Translations under genes and position numbers: made by a program
Part shown: positions 56,358 to 64,000 of the stretch, piece after piece
Layout: every line of letters starts with the position of its first letter
Numbering within the stretch: position 1 is the stretch's first letter
Notes under the pieces: generated by a model
Databases searched by the model: none
Told to the model about the DNA's origin: nothing
The model's input: the letters and a program-made list of their open reading frames with translations, nothing else
Source: an uncultured Caldisericota bacterium
Lineage (GTDB): Bacteria > Caldisericota > Caldisericia > B22-G15
Assembly (NCBI GenBank): GCA_964640995.1
Contig: CAZXJJ010000003.1
Span: forward strand, 198,829 to 262,828
Direction of reading: 5' to 3'
Length of the DNA: 64,000 bases

Positions 56358-57635
56358 CTAACCTGATTTAACTATTGGGATCTCTTCCCACCTTGTTGTA
56401 TAATTTTTTGATCTGTTGAGTTGTCTCATCTGAAATGGTTTTGATATTCCACAAGAAAGTGGTTTTATTGTTTCTCTTCCAAATTTTTTATTTATATTGT
56501 CAATCGCTTTCATTAAAATTTCATCTTTACTTCCTTTGTAAATTGAATCAAAAAAGAAAAATTGACCCTCTTCTTCAGGTATTAAACCTTGTAAAATAAC
56601 ACCTGCTTTTTTATATAAAATTCCACTCTTGTAGATTTTTTTAAGTTCCTGAATTCCGGCTTCAATCATCTCACTTGTATTTGCTGTTGGTCTTGGAAAA
56701 TAGTATGATGATATCTTAAAATATTTTTCTCCCTTTTTAAATGGATTACTCATTAAAAAAACTGAGATGATTGATGAAAGTTGTCTTCCTTTTCTTAATT
56801 TTTCTGATGCAATTGTTATAAAAGATGAGATTGCCTCTTTAAGGTCTTTAAAATCTGTGAGATCTTTTCCAAAAGACCTTGATGTTGAAATTGATTTTTT
56901 AGTTTTCTCTTCAAACTCCATATCAATACATGGAATTCCGTTGAGTTCTAAAAGAACTCTTAAACCAAATGTTTTAAGATGTTTTTTTACCCAATCATAT
57001 GGAAGGTATTTGTAATCATAAGCTGTTTTTATATCATTTTTCTTTAAAAACTCTTCAAATCTTGCACCAATCCCCCAAACATCTCTTATTTCAAATTTTT
57101 TAAGAAACTCATCTATGTCTTTTCTATCGAGAAGATTAAATGTACCAGAACCTCCTTTGTCTTTTTTTGCTAACTTTGTTGCAATTTTTGCAAGAGTTTT
57201 TGTTTCACCTACTCCAATTGAAATTGGTATTCCAGTCCACTTTAAAACTCTATCTCTTATTCTTTTAATATACTCATCAATATTATGGTATTTAAATCTA
57301 TCAAAAGAGATGAATGCTTCATCAATTGAATATATCTCAACATCAGGACACAAGGTTTTTATTGTTTCCATAACTCTTCTTGACATATCTCCGTATAGAG
57401 TGAAATTTGAAGATAGAAGTTCTATATTATATTTTTTAACTAAATCTTCATATTGAAAAATTGGTGCACCCATTGGAATACCCAATTCTTTAACCTCATT
57501 TGACCTTGAAATAACACAACCATCATTGTTTGACAAAACAACAACAGGTTTCCCCTTTAATTTTGGATTAAAAAATCTTTCGCATGATACATAAAAATTA
57601 TCACAATCAACTAGAGCAAAAACTTTCCTCTTCAT
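56358..57635 (-). CDS. Y-family DNA polymerase (UmuC/DinB-like)
   Basis: 425 aa; N-terminal ALVDCDNFYVSCE palm motif. Confidence 0.8.
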   Translation of the reverse strand: MKRKVFALVDCDNFYVSCERFFNPKLKGKPVVVLSNNDGCVISRSNEVKELGIPMGAPIFQYEDLVKKYNIELLSSNFTLYGDMSRRVMETIKTLCPDVEIYSIDEAFISFDRFKYHNIDEYIKRIRDRVLKWTGIPISIGVGETKTLAKIATKLAKKDKGGSGTFNLLDRKDIDEFLKKFEIRDVWGIGARFEEFLKKNDIKTAYDYKYLPYDWVKKHLKTFGLRVLLELNGIPCIDMEFEEKTKKSISTSRSFGKDLTDFKDLKEAISSFITIASEKLRKGRQLSSIISVFLMSNPFKKGEKYFKISSYYFPRPTANTSEMIEAGIQELKKIYKSGILYKKAGVILQGLIPEEEGQFFFFDSIYKGSKDEILMKAIDNINKKFGRETIKPLSCGISKPFQMRQLNRSKNYTTRWEEIPIVKSG

Positions 57636-58043
57636 TTATAAAATTTTATGAATAACATAGGTCACAACACCCCAAATCTCGCACTCCATTCCTTCTTTTA
57701 TCTCAATAGGATCAAAGTCTGAATTTTCAGGAAATAGATATAGTTTTCCATTTTTCTTTCTTATTCTTTTAAGCACAAATTCTCCATCAACATTTGCAAT
57801 AACAATTTTTCCTTCTTTTGGCTCAAGCGCTCTATCAACAATTAATATATCTCCATCTCTTATGTTTGCATTTATCATTGAATTTCCTGAAACTCTAACA
57901 AAAAAGGTTGCTTGAGGATGTTTTATAACAAGGTCATTAAGATCTAGTGTTTTTTCAATAAAATCATCAGCAGGTGATGGAAAACCAGCAGACACTTTGT
58001 TTGAATAAAGTGGAAGTTTTAATTTTTTCTTTTTTCTTCTCAT
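57636..58043 (-). CDS. UmuD/LexA-like S24 peptidase domain protein
   Basis: 135 aa; GNSM catalytic Ser and downstream Lys (VLKRIRKK) of S24 self-cleaving family; immediately upstream of the Y-family polymerase gene. Confidence 0.7.
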   Translation of the reverse strand: MRRKKKKLKLPLYSNKVSAGFPSPADDFIEKTLDLNDLVIKHPQATFFVRVSGNSMINANIRDGDILIVDRALEPKEGKIVIANVDGEFVLKRIRKKNGKLYLFPENSDFDPIEIKEGMECEIWGVVTYVIHKIL

Positions 58044-58119
58044 ATTTTAATTATAATCTTAAAGAGAGTTTTAATTGAAAAATTTAAAAATTTGACATTA
58101 TAAATGGTAGAAGAATTTG

Positions 58120-58300
58120 GTAAAATTATTTTGGTCAGGTGTAGGGAAGAGGGTGAAAATCCCTCGCTGCCCCGCAACTGTGAGTGGGTATTGATCTAAT
58201 CCTTAAGCCACTGGGAAACTGGGAAGGCTTAAAGAAAAGTTACAGCACCCACAAGCCAGGAGACCTGCCTGATCAAATTTTACCTTCCGCCTTCGCGGGA
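58120..58300 (+). ncRNA. cobalamin (adenosylcobalamin) riboswitch
   Basis: Core GGGAAGAGGGTGAAAATCCCTCGCTGCCCCGCAACTGTGAG and B12 box AGCCAGGAGACCTGCC (58254-58269); 3' hairpin CCTTCCGCC-TTCG-CGGGAAGG abutting the AAGGAGG RBS of the downstream gene. Confidence 0.8.
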
Positions 58301-58314
58301 AGGAAAGGAGGAGT

Positions 58315-59649
58315 ATGATGAAAAAATTTTTAAAAATCTCACTTTTATCAATTCTTTTATTTGTTTTATTATTTCCTACATTTTTCCATCCCCAAAAAAA
58401 TATTTTCTCATTTAGTGTAAATTTTTCTTTTAAGATCAATTCAAATCTTTTTCAATTAAATGAAAATACCTTCCAATTCACACAAAACCCAATTGTTAAA
58501 AATGGAAAAACCTTTGTTCCTGTTAGAGATTTCCTTAATGCTCTTGAAATAGAATATAAATGGGTTGATTCAGAAAAAAGCATAAACTTTGAGTATGATG
58601 CAAAGAAAGTTAAAATCTATTTAAAAGAGAATTTTTACACAATCAATGACTCAAAAAGAAATTTTAAATTTAGGCCATTTATTTTTAAAGATTTAACTTA
58701 TGTTTCTGTAAGAGATTTAGGAGAAATTTTCAATTTAAATGTTATTTGGAATGAAAAAGAGAAAAAAGTTACTCTTTCAGGAAATATATATCCCAAAATT
58801 ACAGTTAAAGATGATTTAAACAATGTTGTTACTTTTTATGAAAAACCAAAAAGGATTGTCTCTCTTGCACCATCAAATACAGAAATTTTGTTTTCTTTGG
58901 GATTAAATGATGAAATAGTTGGTGTTACTGAGTTCTGTGATTATCCAACTGAAGCCAAAAAGAAAGAGAAAATTGGTGGTTTTATAAATCCAAATCTAGA
59001 AAAAATTTACTCCCTTAAACCAGATTTAGTTTTAGGAATTAGGGGCAATCCAATTGATCTATTCATGAATCTTAAAAAATTAAAAATAAAATCACTTGCT
59101 TTTGACCCAAAAAATGTTGATGAACTATTTAAATTAATTTTAACAATAGGAAAGGTTGTTGATAAAAGAGATGAAGCAAGAAATCTTGTTGAAGTTCTTT
59201 CTGAAAAAAGAATGAAAATCATCGAAGAAGCGAGAAAGTTCAAAAAGAAAAGAGTTTATGTAGAGATTTGGAATAGTCCTTATATGTCTGTTGGTAAAAA
59301 TACTTATATTAATGATTTAATTGAGGGGGTCGGAGGAATAAATATCGCAAGCAAAGCAACTGGAGATTGGCCAATTCTTTCACAAGAGTTCATAATAAAT
59401 GAAAATCCAGAAGTTATTATAATTGCTTATATGGGGCAAACAATAGATGATGTTCTAAAAAGATCTGGATGGGAAAAAATTGATGCTGTTAAAAATAGAA
59501 GGATTTATATATTTGAAAATCAAGACCTCATCTTTAGATTAGGACCTAGAATAATTGATGGTATGGAGGAACTTTTTAGGTTGATTCATAAAGATGAACT
59601 ATCAAAATTTTCTGAGGAGACGAATGTCTCCTCCCCTCTAATCAGATGA
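58315..59649 (+). CDS. BtuF/FhuD-type (cluster A) cobalamin/siderophore ABC substrate-binding protein with N-terminal copper-amine-oxidase-N-like domain
   Basis: 444 aa; signal peptide without lipobox; residues about 60-160 resemble the C-terminal domains of the 2227-aa protein (NGKTFVPVRDFLNALE..); C-terminal about 280 aa periplasmic binding fold. Confidence 0.7.
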   Translation: MMKKFLKISLLSILLFVLLFPTFFHPQKNIFSFSVNFSFKINSNLFQLNENTFQFTQNPIVKNGKTFVPVRDFLNALEIEYKWVDSEKSINFEYDAKKVKIYLKENFYTINDSKRNFKFRPFIFKDLTYVSVRDLGEIFNLNVIWNEKEKKVTLSGNIYPKITVKDDLNNVVTFYEKPKRIVSLAPSNTEILFSLGLNDEIVGVTEFCDYPTEAKKKEKIGGFINPNLEKIYSLKPDLVLGIRGNPIDLFMNLKKLKIKSLAFDPKNVDELFKLILTIGKVVDKRDEARNLVEVLSEKRMKIIEEARKFKKKRVYVEIWNSPYMSVGKNTYINDLIEGVGGINIASKATGDWPILSQEFIINENPEVIIIAYMGQTIDDVLKRSGWEKIDAVKNRRIYIFENQDLIFRLGPRIIDGMEELFRLIHKDELSKFSEETNVSSPLIR

Positions 59650-60623
59650 AGAAAAATTTTTTTATATTAACAATAGTAATTTTACTTTTTATCTCTCTTT
59701 TTTTATCTTTATCATTTGGTGCTAAAAGATATTCATTTTATGAGGTTATAAAATTTATCTTCAATCTTAAAAATGCAGATGAATTATTTATAAAAATAAG
59801 AATTCCAAGGGTTTTCTCCTCGTTTCTTGTTGGTGCATCTCTTTCAATTGCAGGACTTCTATCTCAAACTCTATTTTTAAATCCACTTGCAGATCCATTT
59901 TTGTTTGGTATTTCTTCTGGTGCAAATTTTTTTGTAACCTTATCACTTTTTTTAGGTTTTGATATGATATTTAAATATTCACTTTCATTTTTCTCTTTTC
60001 TTGGTGCACTTTTTTCTGTTTCGATGATTTACCTTATAAGTAGAATCAAAGGGAAAATCACTCCACTGAATTTACTTCTTTCTGGAATTGCTATAAATTA
60101 TCTTTTCTCTTCTCTTTCAACCTTTCTTGTTATATGGGGAAGGGATGTTTTAAATAAATCTGTCTTTTGGTCTTTAACAGGTTTCTCAACTGCTGATATG
60201 AATAAATTTCTTTTTTTATTTTTTATATTTATTCCAGCTTTAATAATCTCTATTTTCATAAGTTTTAAACTTGATGTTTACTCTTTGGGGGAAGACCAAG
60301 CAAAAACTCTTGGAATAAATACAAACTCATTAAAAACTATAACACTTGTCTTAATTTCAATTCTAACAGGGGTTAGTGTTTATGTTTCTGGAATTATAGG
60401 TTTTATAGGTCTTATGGTGCCAAATATTTTAAGAGAGATTTTTGGTTTAAAACACTTAAAACAAATTTTACTTTCAGTGCTTTTTGGTGGATTTTTATTG
60501 GTTCTTTCAGATTTATCTGGAAGAGCAGTGTTTTATCCAACAGAAATTCCTGTTTCAACAATAACTTCTTTTTTAGGTGTTCCATTCTTTTTGTATGTTT
60601 TATGGAAAGAGAAGGTATTTTAA
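59646..60623 (+). CDS. btuC: FecCD/BtuC-family ABC permease
   Basis: 325 aa, about 9-10 TM helices, FecCD-type. Confidence 0.8.
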   Translation: MKKNFFILTIVILLFISLFLSLSFGAKRYSFYEVIKFIFNLKNADELFIKIRIPRVFSSFLVGASLSIAGLLSQTLFLNPLADPFLFGISSGANFFVTLSLFLGFDMIFKYSLSFFSFLGALFSVSMIYLISRIKGKITPLNLLLSGIAINYLFSSLSTFLVIWGRDVLNKSVFWSLTGFSTADMNKFLFLFFIFIPALIISIFISFKLDVYSLGEDQAKTLGINTNSLKTITLVLISILTGVSVYVSGIIGFIGLMVPNILREIFGLKHLKQILLSVLFGGFLLVLSDLSGRAVFYPTEIPVSTITSFLGVPFFLYVLWKEKVF

Positions 60624-61357
60624 TGAATAGAAATTATCTTGAAATAAAAGATGTTTCTTTTTTCTATAAAGATAGAGAGATTTTAAAAAATATAAGTTTT
60701 TGTATCGAAAAAGGTGATAGTTTAACAATTTTTGGTCCAAATGGTAGTGGAAAAACAACACTTTTAAAAATTTTAATTGGACTTTTAAAGCCACAAAAAG
60801 GAGGGGTTTATTTTAAGGGTATTGATATATTTAAAATAAATGAAAGGGATAGAGGAAAAATTTTTTCTTATGTTCCACAAAAGGTAAATATTAATTTTCC
60901 ACTAAAAACTTTTGATTTTCTTTTAACAGGTAGAGCACCTTATATAAATGGATTTGTAAAAAAAGAAGATAAAGATATTGTTTTAAATTGGATGGAAAAG
61001 TTTAACATAATTCATCTAAGAGAGATTAATTTTCAACTTTTATCTGAGGGAGAAAAACAACTTTTAACATTAATTAGAACATTAATTCAGGAAACAGAAA
61101 TAATTGTTCTCGATGAACCATTAAATCACCTTGATTTAAAATATAAAATAAAAATTTTAAAATTATTACAAAAGATAAAACTCTCAGGCAAAACGGTTAT
61201 ATCTGTTTTTCATGAAATAGATTCAATAAAATTTTTATCTGATAAAGTTGTCTTTCTTAAAAATGGAGAAATAGAAAAATTTGGTGAAGTTGAAAAATTA
61301 ATAAAAAAAGAAGAGATTATCAATCTTTTTGAAGAAAACATACCATTTCTAATTTAA
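60602..61357 (+). CDS. btuD: ABC transporter ATP-binding protein (BtuD/FepC type)
   Basis: 251 aa; Walker A GPNGSGKTT, LSEGEKQ signature. Confidence 0.8.
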   Translation: MEREGILMNRNYLEIKDVSFFYKDREILKNISFCIEKGDSLTIFGPNGSGKTTLLKILIGLLKPQKGGVYFKGIDIFKINERDRGKIFSYVPQKVNINFPLKTFDFLLTGRAPYINGFVKKEDKDIVLNWMEKFNIIHLREINFQLLSEGEKQLLTLIRTLIQETEIIVLDEPLNHLDLKYKIKILKLLQKIKLSGKTVISVFHEIDSIKFLSDKVVFLKNGEIEKFGEVEKLIKKEEIINLFEENIPFLI

Positions 61358-61418
61358 TGTTATAATTTTGTATCAACATCAAAGAAAGATGTTATAATTA
61401 ATAAAATCCCAGAAGGAG

Positions 61419-62513
61419 GTGGTATTAATGATTAAAATATCTGTTATTGGTGCAGGAAATGGAGGTCAAGCTTTATGTGCATATCTTTCTATGAAAGGTT
61501 TTGACACCTCTTTGTATAATAGAAGCAGATGGAGAATAGAACCGATAATTGAGAGCAAAAAAATAAAAGTTGAGGGTGAAGTAAAAGGAATTTCAGAAAT
61601 TTCATTTGCAACAACAGATCTTGAAGAGGCTATAAAAGGGAGAAAACTCATTATGGTTGTTGTTCCAGCATTTGCTCACAGAGAAATCGCCGAAAGAATT
61701 GCCCCATTTGTTGAAGACGGTCAAATAATTTTATTAAATCCAGGAAGAACAGGTGGTGCTCTTGAATTTAAAAATGTTTTTAGATTAAAAGGAGTTAAAA
61801 AAGAAACTCTTGTTGCTGAGGCACAAACTTTTATTTTTGCATCAAGAATGTCAAATCCAGGAGTAGTTAAAATTTTTAGAATAAAAAATGCCGTGCCAAT
61901 CTCTGCAATTCCTGCGAAAAGAAATGATGAACTTAAAGAGATTATGAGAGAGGTTATGCCAGAGTTTGAGGTTGTACCAAACACAATTTACACAAGTTTC
62001 AATAATATAGGTGCTGTTTTTCATCCAGCAACTTTAATTCTTAATGCTGCAAGAATCGAATCAACAGCAGGAAAATTTGAATTTTATCTCGAAGGAATCA
62101 CAATTTCAGTTGCAAAAGTACTTGAAAAGGTTGATGAAGAAAGGTGTCTTGTTATGAAAAAATTTGGAGTCGAGCCCCTTACTTCTCTTAATTGGTTAAA
62201 ATACGCTTATGATGTAACTGGAAAAAATCTTTATGAGGCAATTCATAACAATAGTGGTTATCAAGGAATTCTTGCCCCTCCAAGTATTGATAATAGATAC
62301 ATAACTGAAGATGTTCCAATGAGTTTAGTTCCAATCTCCTCATTTGGTAAAGAGTTTGGAATTAAAACAGATACGATTGATTCAATAATAACACTTTCAA
62401 ATATAATGATGAATGAAAACTATTTTCAAACTGGAAGAACAGTTGAATCTTTAGGTCTTAAGGGAAAAACTCCAGAAGAGATTGTGAAATATCTGGAGGA
62501 GGGTGATGAATAA
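61419..62513 (+). CDS. opine dehydrogenase-family NAD(P)-dependent oxidoreductase
   Basis: 364 aa; Rossmann VIGAGNGG N-terminus and helical C-terminal domain resembling octopine/nopaline DH-type enzymes. Confidence 0.6.
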   Translation: MVLMIKISVIGAGNGGQALCAYLSMKGFDTSLYNRSRWRIEPIIESKKIKVEGEVKGISEISFATTDLEEAIKGRKLIMVVVPAFAHREIAERIAPFVEDGQIILLNPGRTGGALEFKNVFRLKGVKKETLVAEAQTFIFASRMSNPGVVKIFRIKNAVPISAIPAKRNDELKEIMREVMPEFEVVPNTIYTSFNNIGAVFHPATLILNAARIESTAGKFEFYLEGITISVAKVLEKVDEERCLVMKKFGVEPLTSLNWLKYAYDVTGKNLYEAIHNNSGYQGILAPPSIDNRYITEDVPMSLVPISSFGKEFGIKTDTIDSIITLSNIMMNENYFQTGRTVESLGLKGKTPEEIVKYLEEGDE

Positions 62514-64000
62514 AAAAATAGTTGGTGCAGCAATTGAAAACGATATACATGTTGCAGGACTTCTCAATTTTTTGAATCTTGCAAAAAAAGAGGGTTTTGA
62601 AATTCACTATCTTGGTGGCGCAGTTCCAATTGAAAAACTTATAGGTGCAATAATTGAAGTTGACCCAGAAATTGTTGCAATAAGTTATAGATTGGGAGAA
62701 GAGCCATTAAAAAATCTTTTAAATGAATTTGTTGAAAAATCAAAAAAATTTAAAAATAAAAAAATAAAATTTGTTTTTGGTGGAACAATTGAAACAGGAA
62801 AAGTTGCAAGAGCTTATACCATTTTTGAAAGGGTTTTTGATGGAAGTGAAGAAATTGAGGAGGTTTTAAATTTTTTAAGGGGAAGAGCAATAAATATAAA
62901 AGAGAAAGATTATCCTCAAACTTTATGGGAAAGAGTGGAATTTAAAAAACCTTATCCACTCATAAGACATCACATTGGTCTTCAAACTATGGATGAAACA
63001 ATAGAAGAAATTAAAAAACTATCTGAAAGCAAACTCCTCGATATAATTTCTATTGCACCAGATCAAAATTGTCAATGTTATTTTTTTGAAAAAGAGAAGA
63101 TGGATGAAAAATTATCTGGTGCTGGTGGAGCGCCAATAAGAACAGAGGAAGATTTTAAAAAACTATATGAAGCATCAAGAAGAGGAAATTATCCTTTAAT
63201 GAGATGTTATTCTGGAACAAAAAACATTGTAAAATTTTCAAAACTTCTTAAAGAAACAATTAATAATGCATGGGCTGCAATTCCAATTTTTTGGTATTCA
63301 GAACTTGATAAGCGAAGTGACAGAGAACTTCTTTCTGCAATTGAAGAAAATATGGAAGGAATAAGTTGGAATGCTCAAAACAGTGTTCCTGTTGAAGTGA
63401 ATGACTCTCATCAATGGGAATTAAGAAATGCACATGATACTCTTGCAGTAGCAGATTCATATCTTGTTGCTTACATTGCAAAAAAACTTGGAGTTAAAAA
63501 CTATATTCAACAATATATGTTAAATTCTCCACCTAATCTTTCACCAAAAATGGATATAGCAAAAAGTTTAGCAAGAAAAGAGCTGGTTGAATCTCTTCGA
63601 GATGAAAATTTTAATGTTTATACAATGATTCGAACAGGCCTTCTTTCTTATCCATCAGACCCATTTCAAGCAATGGGTCAACTTGTATCTTCTATGTTTT
63701 ATGGCTCATATTTAAAACCAGATATTATTCATGTCGTTGCTTACACTGAAGCGATAAAGAGAGCAACATCAAAAGAAATTATTGAAAGCACAAAGATGGT
63801 AAAAAGAGCATATATTCTTGCTGATTCTGGTCTTCCAGACTTTTATCAAGATAGAGAAATTAAAAATAGAGTTTTGGAGTTAAAAGATGAAGCAATGTAT
63901 CTTATTGAGAAAATAAAAGAATTAGGTAAAGGAAAAAAAGAACCACTTTTAGACCCAGAAACACTTTTCAGTGCAGTTAAAACTGGAATTTTAGATGCAC
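62506..64000 (+). CDS. single-chain B12-binding (GlmS/MutS-like) + GlmE-like (methylaspartate-mutase E family) protein; C-terminus beyond window
   Basis: ATG 62506 overlaps the upstream stop by 8 nt; DxHxxG cobalamin motif (ENDIHVAGL) near the N-terminus, Rossmann-like about 130 aa, then a large domain whose visible end (IEKIKELGKGK..ETLFSAVKTGILDA) resembles, from memory, the C-terminal region of glutamate mutase E subunit. Confidence 0.55.
   Translation, partial: MNKKIVGAAIENDIHVAGLLNFLNLAKKEGFEIHYLGGAVPIEKLIGAIIEVDPEIVAISYRLGEEPLKNLLNEFVEKSKKFKNKKIKFVFGGTIETGKVARAYTIFERVFDGSEEIEEVLNFLRGRAINIKEKDYPQTLWERVEFKKPYPLIRHHIGLQTMDETIEEIKKLSESKLLDIISIAPDQNCQCYFFEKEKMDEKLSGAGGAPIRTEEDFKKLYEASRRGNYPLMRCYSGTKNIVKFSKLLKETINNAWAAIPIFWYSELDKRSDRELLSAIEENMEGISWNAQNSVPVEVNDSHQWELRNAHDTLAVADSYLVAYIAKKLGVKNYIQQYMLNSPPNLSPKMDIAKSLARKELVESLRDENFNVYTMIRTGLLSYPSDPFQAMGQLVSSMFYGSYLKPDIIHVVAYTEAIKRATSKEIIESTKMVKRAYILADSGLPDFYQDREIKNRVLELKDEAMYLIEKIKELGKGKKEPLLDPETLFSAVKTGILDA

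Follow-up and report, generated by a model that had tools for sequence, protein, structure and literature searches.

What reaction is carried out by a protein that joins a B12-binding domain to a barrel resembling the catalytic subunit of glutamate mutase, and that is encoded next to an opine dehydrogenase (ODH) behind a cobalamin riboswitch and a B12 importer? The question is raised by a locus of an uncultured Caldisericota bacterium (GTDB lineage Bacteria; Caldisericota; Caldisericia; B22-G15). It lies at the end of a stretch of 64,000 nucleotides, hereafter the window (GenBank assembly GCA_964640995.1, contig CAZXJJ010000003.1, positions 198,829 to 262,828 of the forward strand; C3:198829-262828 in our numbering of contigs). 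The genome is complete, comprises 1.42 Mb in 22 contigs and has a GC content of 28%. The locus is a real and conserved B12-dependent two-enzyme module, which was predicted in 2009 and has been uncharacterised since. The fused protein is probably an adenosylcobalamin (AdoCbl)-dependent class I radical carbon-skeleton mutase that acts on an amino acid or an opine in concert with the ODH; in this reading the radical chemistry is inferred, and so are the class of substrate, the sequence of steps and the mode of regulation. The features of the locus are listed below. Beyond the end of the window the count is continued, with positions in L003, a genomic stretch reaching past the window end, in brackets (L003 7960 corresponds to window-equivalent position 64131).

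58120..58286, + strand: cobalamin riboswitch aptamer (RF00174, full 189-position model)
58284..58317, + strand: likely expression platform, a hairpin of CCUUCC with GGAAGG of the btuF ribosome-binding site (RBS), from the minimum free energy (MFE) fold
58315..59649, + strand: BtuF-like B12-binding lipoprotein (PF01497, 133.8 bits; NCBIfam PRK03379 BtuF, 121.9 bits)
59646..60623, + strand: BtuC-like permease, FecCD (PF01032, 296.5 bits)
60602..61357, + strand: BtuD-like ABC ATPase (PF00005, 103 bits)
61419..62513, + strand: ODH of the octopine/nopaline dehydrogenase family, similar to N-(1-D-carboxyethyl)-L-norvaline dehydrogenase (CENDH) (PF02317, 156 bits)
62503..64000, continuing to window-equivalent 64131, + strand: fused B12-binding and GlmE-like TIM-barrel enzyme, 542 aa (PF02310 and structure)
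Window-equivalent 64144-65094 (L003 7973-8923), same strand, beyond the window: Ddl-like ATP-grasp enzyme (NCBIfam PRK01372, 169 bits)
About window-equivalent 65097-65117 (L003 8926-8946), beyond the window: strong bidirectional terminator

An initial annotation, made from the letters of the window, had proposed five co-directional genes for a BtuF-like protein, BtuC, BtuD, an ODH and the fused protein. All five were found at or near the positions where it had placed them, with matches far beyond chance. Following the contig past the window, as it had recommended, revealed a sixth co-directional gene that it had overlooked, the Ddl-like ATP-grasp gene, which starts 12 nt after the fused gene; no glmL gene adjoins the operon. 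The nearest relatives of the locus proteins are encoded in metagenome-assembled genomes of Caldisericia (83-89% identity), and a search of sequencing runs with positions 58000-64000 found related sequence in DNA runs from hot-spring and soil metagenomes and returned no RNA run.

The fused protein extends 131 nt beyond the window end and is complete at 542 aa. Its N-terminal part matches the B12-binding domain PF02310 at residues 5-99 with 41.9 bits, which is above the Pfam cut-off, and the DIHVAG motif from which this domain had been recognised corresponds to D14-I-H16-V-A-G19. His16 is invariant in 35 relatives. Together with the conserved G93G94 and a slight variant at the SxL position (S61-Y-R63-L64), the motif of class I His-on B12 domains (DxHxxG ... 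SxL ... GG) is present. The domain also gave weak sequence matches to GlmS (1be1), the B12-binding subunit of glutamate mutase, and to other His-on corrinoid domains.

A resemblance to the corrinoid domains of MetH and MttC could suggest a B12-dependent methyltransferase or corrinoid protein, or a B12 binder without catalytic function, and some relatives are indeed named 'methionine synthase' in databases. We regard this as very improbable, since the C-terminal barrel is GlmE-like and neither of the MetH homocysteine/folate type nor of the MtaB type, no methyl-donor or activation partner was found, and the barrel carries many invariant residues of catalytic appearance. The name 'methionine synthase' was accordingly rejected for these relatives, the barrel not being MetH-like.

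For the C-terminal part, the Pfam family Met_asp_mut_E (PF06368) was matched at residues 324-500 with 24.7 bits, which is below the gathering score of 26.6. Searches of PDB sequences, with phmmer on the catalytic domain and with an HMM of the 35 relatives, recovered B12-binding domains only, and neither GlmE nor another catalytic relative. Structure gave a clearer result. An AlphaFold2 model, for which the 35 relatives were aligned, reached a pLDDT of 94 and a pTM of 0.88, and its best Foldseek match among solved chains was glutamate mutase E (1cb7_B, E 3.7e-17, TMt 0.65). In the VIA comparison, residues 134-539 of the model were superimposed on residues 41-440 of GlmE (1cb7_B) with a Z score of 33.4 and an rmsd of 2.9 Å over 372 residues, at 18% identity. 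Since the PDB sequence searches gave no catalytic relative, the designation 'glutamate-mutase-like' is a structural one, based on the modelled fold. The initial annotation had proposed this part to be GlmE-like and had named the lack of a significant Met_asp_mut_E hit as a reason to give the assignment up. By sequence this is formally what was found, and Pfam membership does not hold; the structure nonetheless settles the assignment as GlmE-like. In the model, a His-on B12 domain is followed by a GlmE-like TIM barrel in a single chain, which agrees with the proposed fusion in S-then-E order.

The fold is shared with enzymes of other chemistry. After GlmE, the VIA comparison returned the lysine 5,6-aminomutase subunit KamD (Z 32.2), ornithine 4,5-aminomutase (Z 28.7), methylmalonyl-CoA mutase (MCM; Z about 22) and IcmF (about 20). 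The near-equal scores of KamD and of OraE, the large subunit of ornithine aminomutase, raise the question of whether the protein is instead an aminomutase of that kind, dependent on both pyridoxal phosphate (PLP) and B12 and acting on an amino acid or an opine, and other B12 aminomutases are encoded in the genome. OraE and KamDE require PLP, and in the ornithine 4,5- and lysine 5,6-aminomutases the Lys that binds PLP is part of the B12 domain and follows the His by about 11 residues. No conserved Lys is present at positions +11 to +13 from His16 in the fused protein; K28 and K29 vary across the relatives. A PLP-related partner was not found in any locus either, which makes an aminomutase improbable.

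A B12 Rossmann domain and a TIM barrel also occur in one chain in MCM, OraE and IcmF, and in IcmF the B12 domain is likewise N-terminal. The barrels of MCM and IcmF match less well than that of GlmE. Moreover, MCM, IcmF and HcmA use acyl-CoA thioesters, whereas no CoA-related partners were found at the module. The residues of the barrel that are invariant among relatives are R144, R155, R271, R308, R377 and R456 as well as D180, D269, E298, D312, D351 and E416. Judged from the alignment, these arginines and acidic residues would fit a carboxylate-rich substrate.

Is the protein then a glutamate mutase? Glutamate mutase GlmES (EC 5.4.99.1; Clostridium cochlearium, 1CCW/1CB7) shares the barrel fold of GlmE, a His-on B12 domain like that of GlmS and the order GlmS-then-GlmE, and GlmL-like accessory proteins accompany some relatives of the fused enzyme. 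The active-site residues of GlmE in C. cochlearium are Arg66, Arg100, Arg149, Glu171 and Glu330. GlmES is a heterotetramer of S and E, whereas a single fused chain with 18% identity to GlmE is present here; GlmES goes with glmL and methylaspartase, the fused enzyme with an ODH and often an amide ligase. Neither its sequence, which scores below the Pfam cut-off, nor its context, in which methylaspartase is lacking and glmL does not adjoin, qualifies the protein as a glutamate mutase proper. The initial annotation had seen no methylaspartate ammonia-lyase in the window, and a search with PF07476 found none in the complete genome. A classical GlmE is likewise absent from the genome, and no glmL is located near the operon. 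The single GlmL-family gene of the genome lies about 160 kb away (C3:96896-98197) and fits best to the GlmL subfamily of ornithine degradation.

A true single-chain glutamate mutase would convert L-glutamate to threo-3-methylaspartate, and the ODH or a ligase would build an opine or amide containing 3-methylaspartate, a compound used in some lipopeptides. GlmE being the top structural match speaks for this, as do the GlmL-like genes fused to or adjoining some relatives, and the lack of methylaspartase would mean that 3-methylaspartate is kept and not fermented. On the other hand, sequence identity to GlmE is low and the match stays under the Pfam cut-off, a fused single chain is unlike every characterised GlmES, the GlmL-family gene of the genome belongs to the ornithine subfamily, and the invariant pairing with an ODH is foreign to known glutamate mutase pathways. 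Weighing both sides, we consider it rather unlikely that the enzyme is a glutamate mutase in the strict sense.

The ODH is the fixed partner of the fused enzyme. The ODH at 61419-62513 contains both domains of the opine dehydrogenase family, PF02317 and NAD_Gly3P_dh_N (Pfam), in line with its earlier assignment as an opine dehydrogenase. Its nearest solved structure is the CENDH of Arthrobacter (1bg6_A, E 6e-75). CENDH of Arthrobacter sp. 1C (1BG6) is thus the closest known enzyme, with PF02317 in common, but the ODH studied here belongs to a B12-dependent module and not to a free-standing opine route. The fused gene starts with GTG at 62503 or ATG at 62506 behind the Shine-Dalgarno (SD) sequence GGAGGAGG. 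Counted from the ATG, it shares 8 nt with the end of the ODH gene, whose stop codon is the TAA at 62511-62513. This supports both the 8-nt overlap and the translational coupling that had been proposed.

Both the architecture and the pairing have been described before. Zhang et al. 2009 (BMC Genomics 10:78, PMC2667541) predicted a 'novel B12-dependent family' in which a COG5012-like B12 domain at the N-terminus is combined with a TIM barrel. They described it as 'always adjacent to' an octopine/nopaline dehydrogenase, in some cases also near a D-Ala-D-Ala ligase or an asparagine synthase, and reported it from Clostridia, Lactobacillales, Chloroflexi and Thermotogae. The fused enzyme shows the architecture as well as the adjacency to an ODH and is a member of this family, not a new discovery. 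The initial annotation could not place a pathway that pairs opine-type condensation with a carbon-skeleton mutase; the fused architecture had already been predicted in that work, as an uncharacterised family. Full-text literature searches did not find a later characterisation. Added here are the GlmE-like fold, the far wider occurrence (at least 592 GTDB species, archaea among them), fusions with ATP-grasp and GlmL-like domains, and the co-localisation with BtuFCD behind a riboswitch in Caldisericia.

The family comprises 2631 matches at the level of 90%-identity clusters; at 50%, there are 586 representatives. In a GTDB scan it was present in at least 592 species genomes, and the hosts are mostly anaerobic. 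Bacterial hosts belong to Thermotogota, Caldisericota, Dictyoglomota, Bacillota/Clostridia, Ignavibacteria, Bacteroidota, Chloroflexota, Actinomycetota, Armatimonadota, Omnitrophota and others, while archaeal hosts include Thorarchaeota and other Asgard lineages, Bathyarchaeia and Methanomicrobia. Neighbourhoods were compared in a census of 89 loci obtained with tblastn. An ODH on the same strand adjoins the mutase in 82 of these, nearly always directly upstream at a distance of 3-130 nt; the loci without an adjoining ODH are mostly contig ends.

Other partners are less regular. A Ddl-like ligase follows downstream in 18 of the 89 loci (the Thermotogota/Caldisericota type), other ATP-grasp ligases occur in 6, and an asparagine-synthase-type gene adjoins the mutase in one further locus. 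Separate GlmL-like genes adjoin the mutase in 5 of the 89 loci. Among the fused relatives, P0130 combines the B12 domain and the barrel with a C-terminal ATP-grasp domain and has a class-I GATase alongside. P0145 and P0148 are fusions of the B12 domain and the barrel with GlmL/MutL (NCBIfam accessory_GlmL, 258.6 bits). At locus L014, a fused enzyme of 1266 aa with a C-terminal GlmL-like ATPase domain is encoded beside Mur-ligase and FemAB genes.

The Ddl-like ligase of the Caldisericota locus is a paralogue, the housekeeping Ddl being encoded separately at C2:53606. In its omega loop, Asn222 occupies the position of Tyr216 in E. coli DdlB, while Lys215 is kept as Lys221, and the orthologues of Thermosipho agree. 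The omega-loop Tyr that characterises a housekeeping Ddl is therefore lacking in the module ligase. Because of Asn222 at the position of Tyr216 and the presence of a separate housekeeping Ddl, the residue pattern points to a specialised paralogue with a substrate other than D-Ala.

Which product might the module make? In the reading we prefer, that of a carbon-skeleton mutase acting with the ODH, the N-terminal His-on B12 domain would replace the separate GlmS subunit and the C-terminal GlmE-like barrel would hold the substrate. The ODH would join an amino acid to a 2-oxo acid, giving an opine, or would use an amino acid made by the mutase. The mutase itself may catalyse a 1,2 carbon-skeleton rearrangement as glutamate mutase does, with homolysis of the Co-C bond, hydrogen abstraction by the 5'-deoxyadenosyl radical, fragmentation and recombination. 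The portion rearranged would be a glutamyl/3-methylaspartyl-type part of an amino acid or opine; in a nopaline-type N-(1,3-dicarboxypropyl) amino acid, for example, the glutamyl part could become a 3-methylaspartyl part, or the reverse. In many lineages, a neighbouring ATP-dependent amide ligase might then join the product to an acceptor. This ligase would be the Ddl-like ATP-grasp enzyme at the locus studied here, and another ATP-grasp or an asparagine-synthase-type enzyme elsewhere.

In two loci, the putative acceptor resembles a cell-surface glycan. The loci L016 and L024 are situated inside clusters for the biosynthesis of glycans, which also encode DegT aminotransferases and glycosyltransferases. 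A gene for an MprF-like flippase (LPG_synthase_TM) was also observed beside the module at L024, which, with DegT, could mean that the products are linked to lipids or glycans. According to a review (PMC10609480), opines are amide-linked in O-antigens of Providencia, examples being Nepsilon-(1-carboxyethyl)lysine and an alanopine carried by 4-amino-4,6-dideoxyglucose. By analogy, these O-antigens are a suggestive precedent for the decoration of glycans by an ODH and an amide ligase, and not evidence for the module. A pathway in which the ODH and the fused mutase make a skeleton-rearranged opine, and ligases amide-link it to cell-surface glycans or peptides, is in our view a speculative proposal with a small chance of being right. 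If true, it would represent a widespread B12-dependent route of cell-surface decoration in anaerobes and Asgard archaea, switched on with B12 import in Caldisericia.

Several findings weigh against the carbon-skeleton mutase and its proposed pathway. Similarity to GlmE is undetectable in PDB sequence searches and the Pfam score falls short of the gathering score. The barrel fold is common to the whole group of class I mutases and aminomutases, as the Z scores of 32.2 for lysine 5,6-aminomutase and 33.4 for GlmE illustrate. The amide-ligase partner is variable and missing from about 70% of the loci, and because of both, the amide-ligase step is not part of the core. Finally, the link between riboswitch and enzymes is confined to Caldisericia. 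With these points included, we still hold the radical mutase to be the probable answer.

How is the module tied to B12 supply? The riboswitch at 58120-58286 (+) was matched by cmscan to RF00174 with 103.5 bits (gathering score 31.5; E 1.1e-25), and its conserved 3' B12-box region (AGCCAGGAGACCUGCC) lies at about 58252-58269. The riboswitch of the initial annotation, with a B12 box at 58254-58269, is hence borne out. The genes behind it encode a periplasmic binding protein with a signal peptide, a FecCD permease and an ABC ATPase, and so make up a BtuFCD importer. The BtuF-like protein (58315-59649) is extended at its N-terminus by a Cu_amine_oxidN1 domain (83.5 bits), which is unusual for BtuF.

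In the MFE fold of 58255-58320 (z-score -1.33), the 3' end of the riboswitch (58284-58306) pairs with the SD region of btuF. From this fold, the expression platform tentatively seems to be a translational OFF switch that hides the RBS of btuF and acts on btuF directly. No terminator was found between btuD and the ODH gene, nor before the ligase gene; the strong bidirectional terminator is located only after the ligase. The riboswitch is kept at the same place in four other Caldisericia genomes, as is the whole order riboswitch-btuF-btuC-btuD-ODH-mutase-Ddl-like ligase, which gives five genomes in all. These belong to the same genus or family within Caldisericia, and the module was not found in families elsewhere in the class. 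Because of the terminator-free gap and the conservation across five Caldisericia genomes, the ODH and the mutase are likely co-transcribed with btuFCD.

It had been proposed that the riboswitch controls the importer and the enzymes alike. Likely co-transcription favours this, whereas the predicted platform acts on btuF, and the ODH and the mutase each carry an SD sequence of their own. In Thermotogota, Petrotoga and Thermosipho have the ODH-mutase pair, Thermosipho also the ligase, as in the cultured T. africanus, and neither a riboswitch nor adjacent btu genes were found at their module loci. Control of the ODH and the mutase by the riboswitch is therefore predicted rather than proven. In Caldisericia, the module and BtuFCD would be co-transcribed behind the riboswitch, so that B12 import and a B12-dependent enzyme would be made together.

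The genome lacks CobS and for that reason probably depends on imported B12. Its other B12 users are an OraE-like ornithine aminomutase, a KamE/OAM-beta-like subunit and B12-radical SAM enzymes. Given several B12-requiring enzymes and no CobS, an importer and a B12-dependent module in one operon would therefore be a sensible, lineage-specific arrangement. The large subunit of the OraE-like ornithine/lysine aminomutase is encoded on C1 at about 91.5-93.7 kb and the OAM-beta/KamE-like B12 subunit on C3 at about 26.98-27.74 kb. Together with the ornithine-type GlmL, these genes suggest a B12-requiring pathway of ornithine or lysine fermentation.

Other genes were observed around the operon. On its upstream side, a divergent SOS mutagenesis cassette points away from the riboswitch operon and consists of a Y-family DNA polymerase (DinB/UmuC-like, 425 aa; window 56358-57635, - strand) and a LexA/UmuD-like S24 peptidase (135 aa; window 57636-58043, - strand). 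Beyond the terminator, L003 8977-12015 (- strand; window-equivalent 65148-68186) encodes a subtilisin-like S8 protease of 1012 aa that contains a PA domain and, at its C-terminus, a type I dockerin. Such a dockerin on a protease of a thermophilic organism suggests that the enzyme is anchored at the surface or arranged as in a cellulosome. Further on are genes for an SOS-response-associated peptidase (SRAP; L003 12055-12741, - strand) and a tRNA (L003 12764-12834, - strand), followed by adjoining genes for an archaeal-type SpeH (AdoMet decarboxylase) and SpeE (spermidine synthase) at L003 13262-14606 (+ strand).

To our knowledge, few AdoCbl-dependent carbon-skeleton mutases have been characterised, namely glutamate, methylmalonyl-CoA, isobutyryl-CoA, 2-hydroxyisobutyryl-CoA and 2-methyleneglutarate mutases. 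The family of the fused enzyme, which has a fixed partner in the ODH, occurs at least as widely as several of these, in at least 592 GTDB species. Were its substrate identified, B12 biochemistry would gain a new radical rearrangement, and a new opine-based metabolite or surface modification would come to light; it would also be explained why the module is linked to B12 import in some thermophiles.

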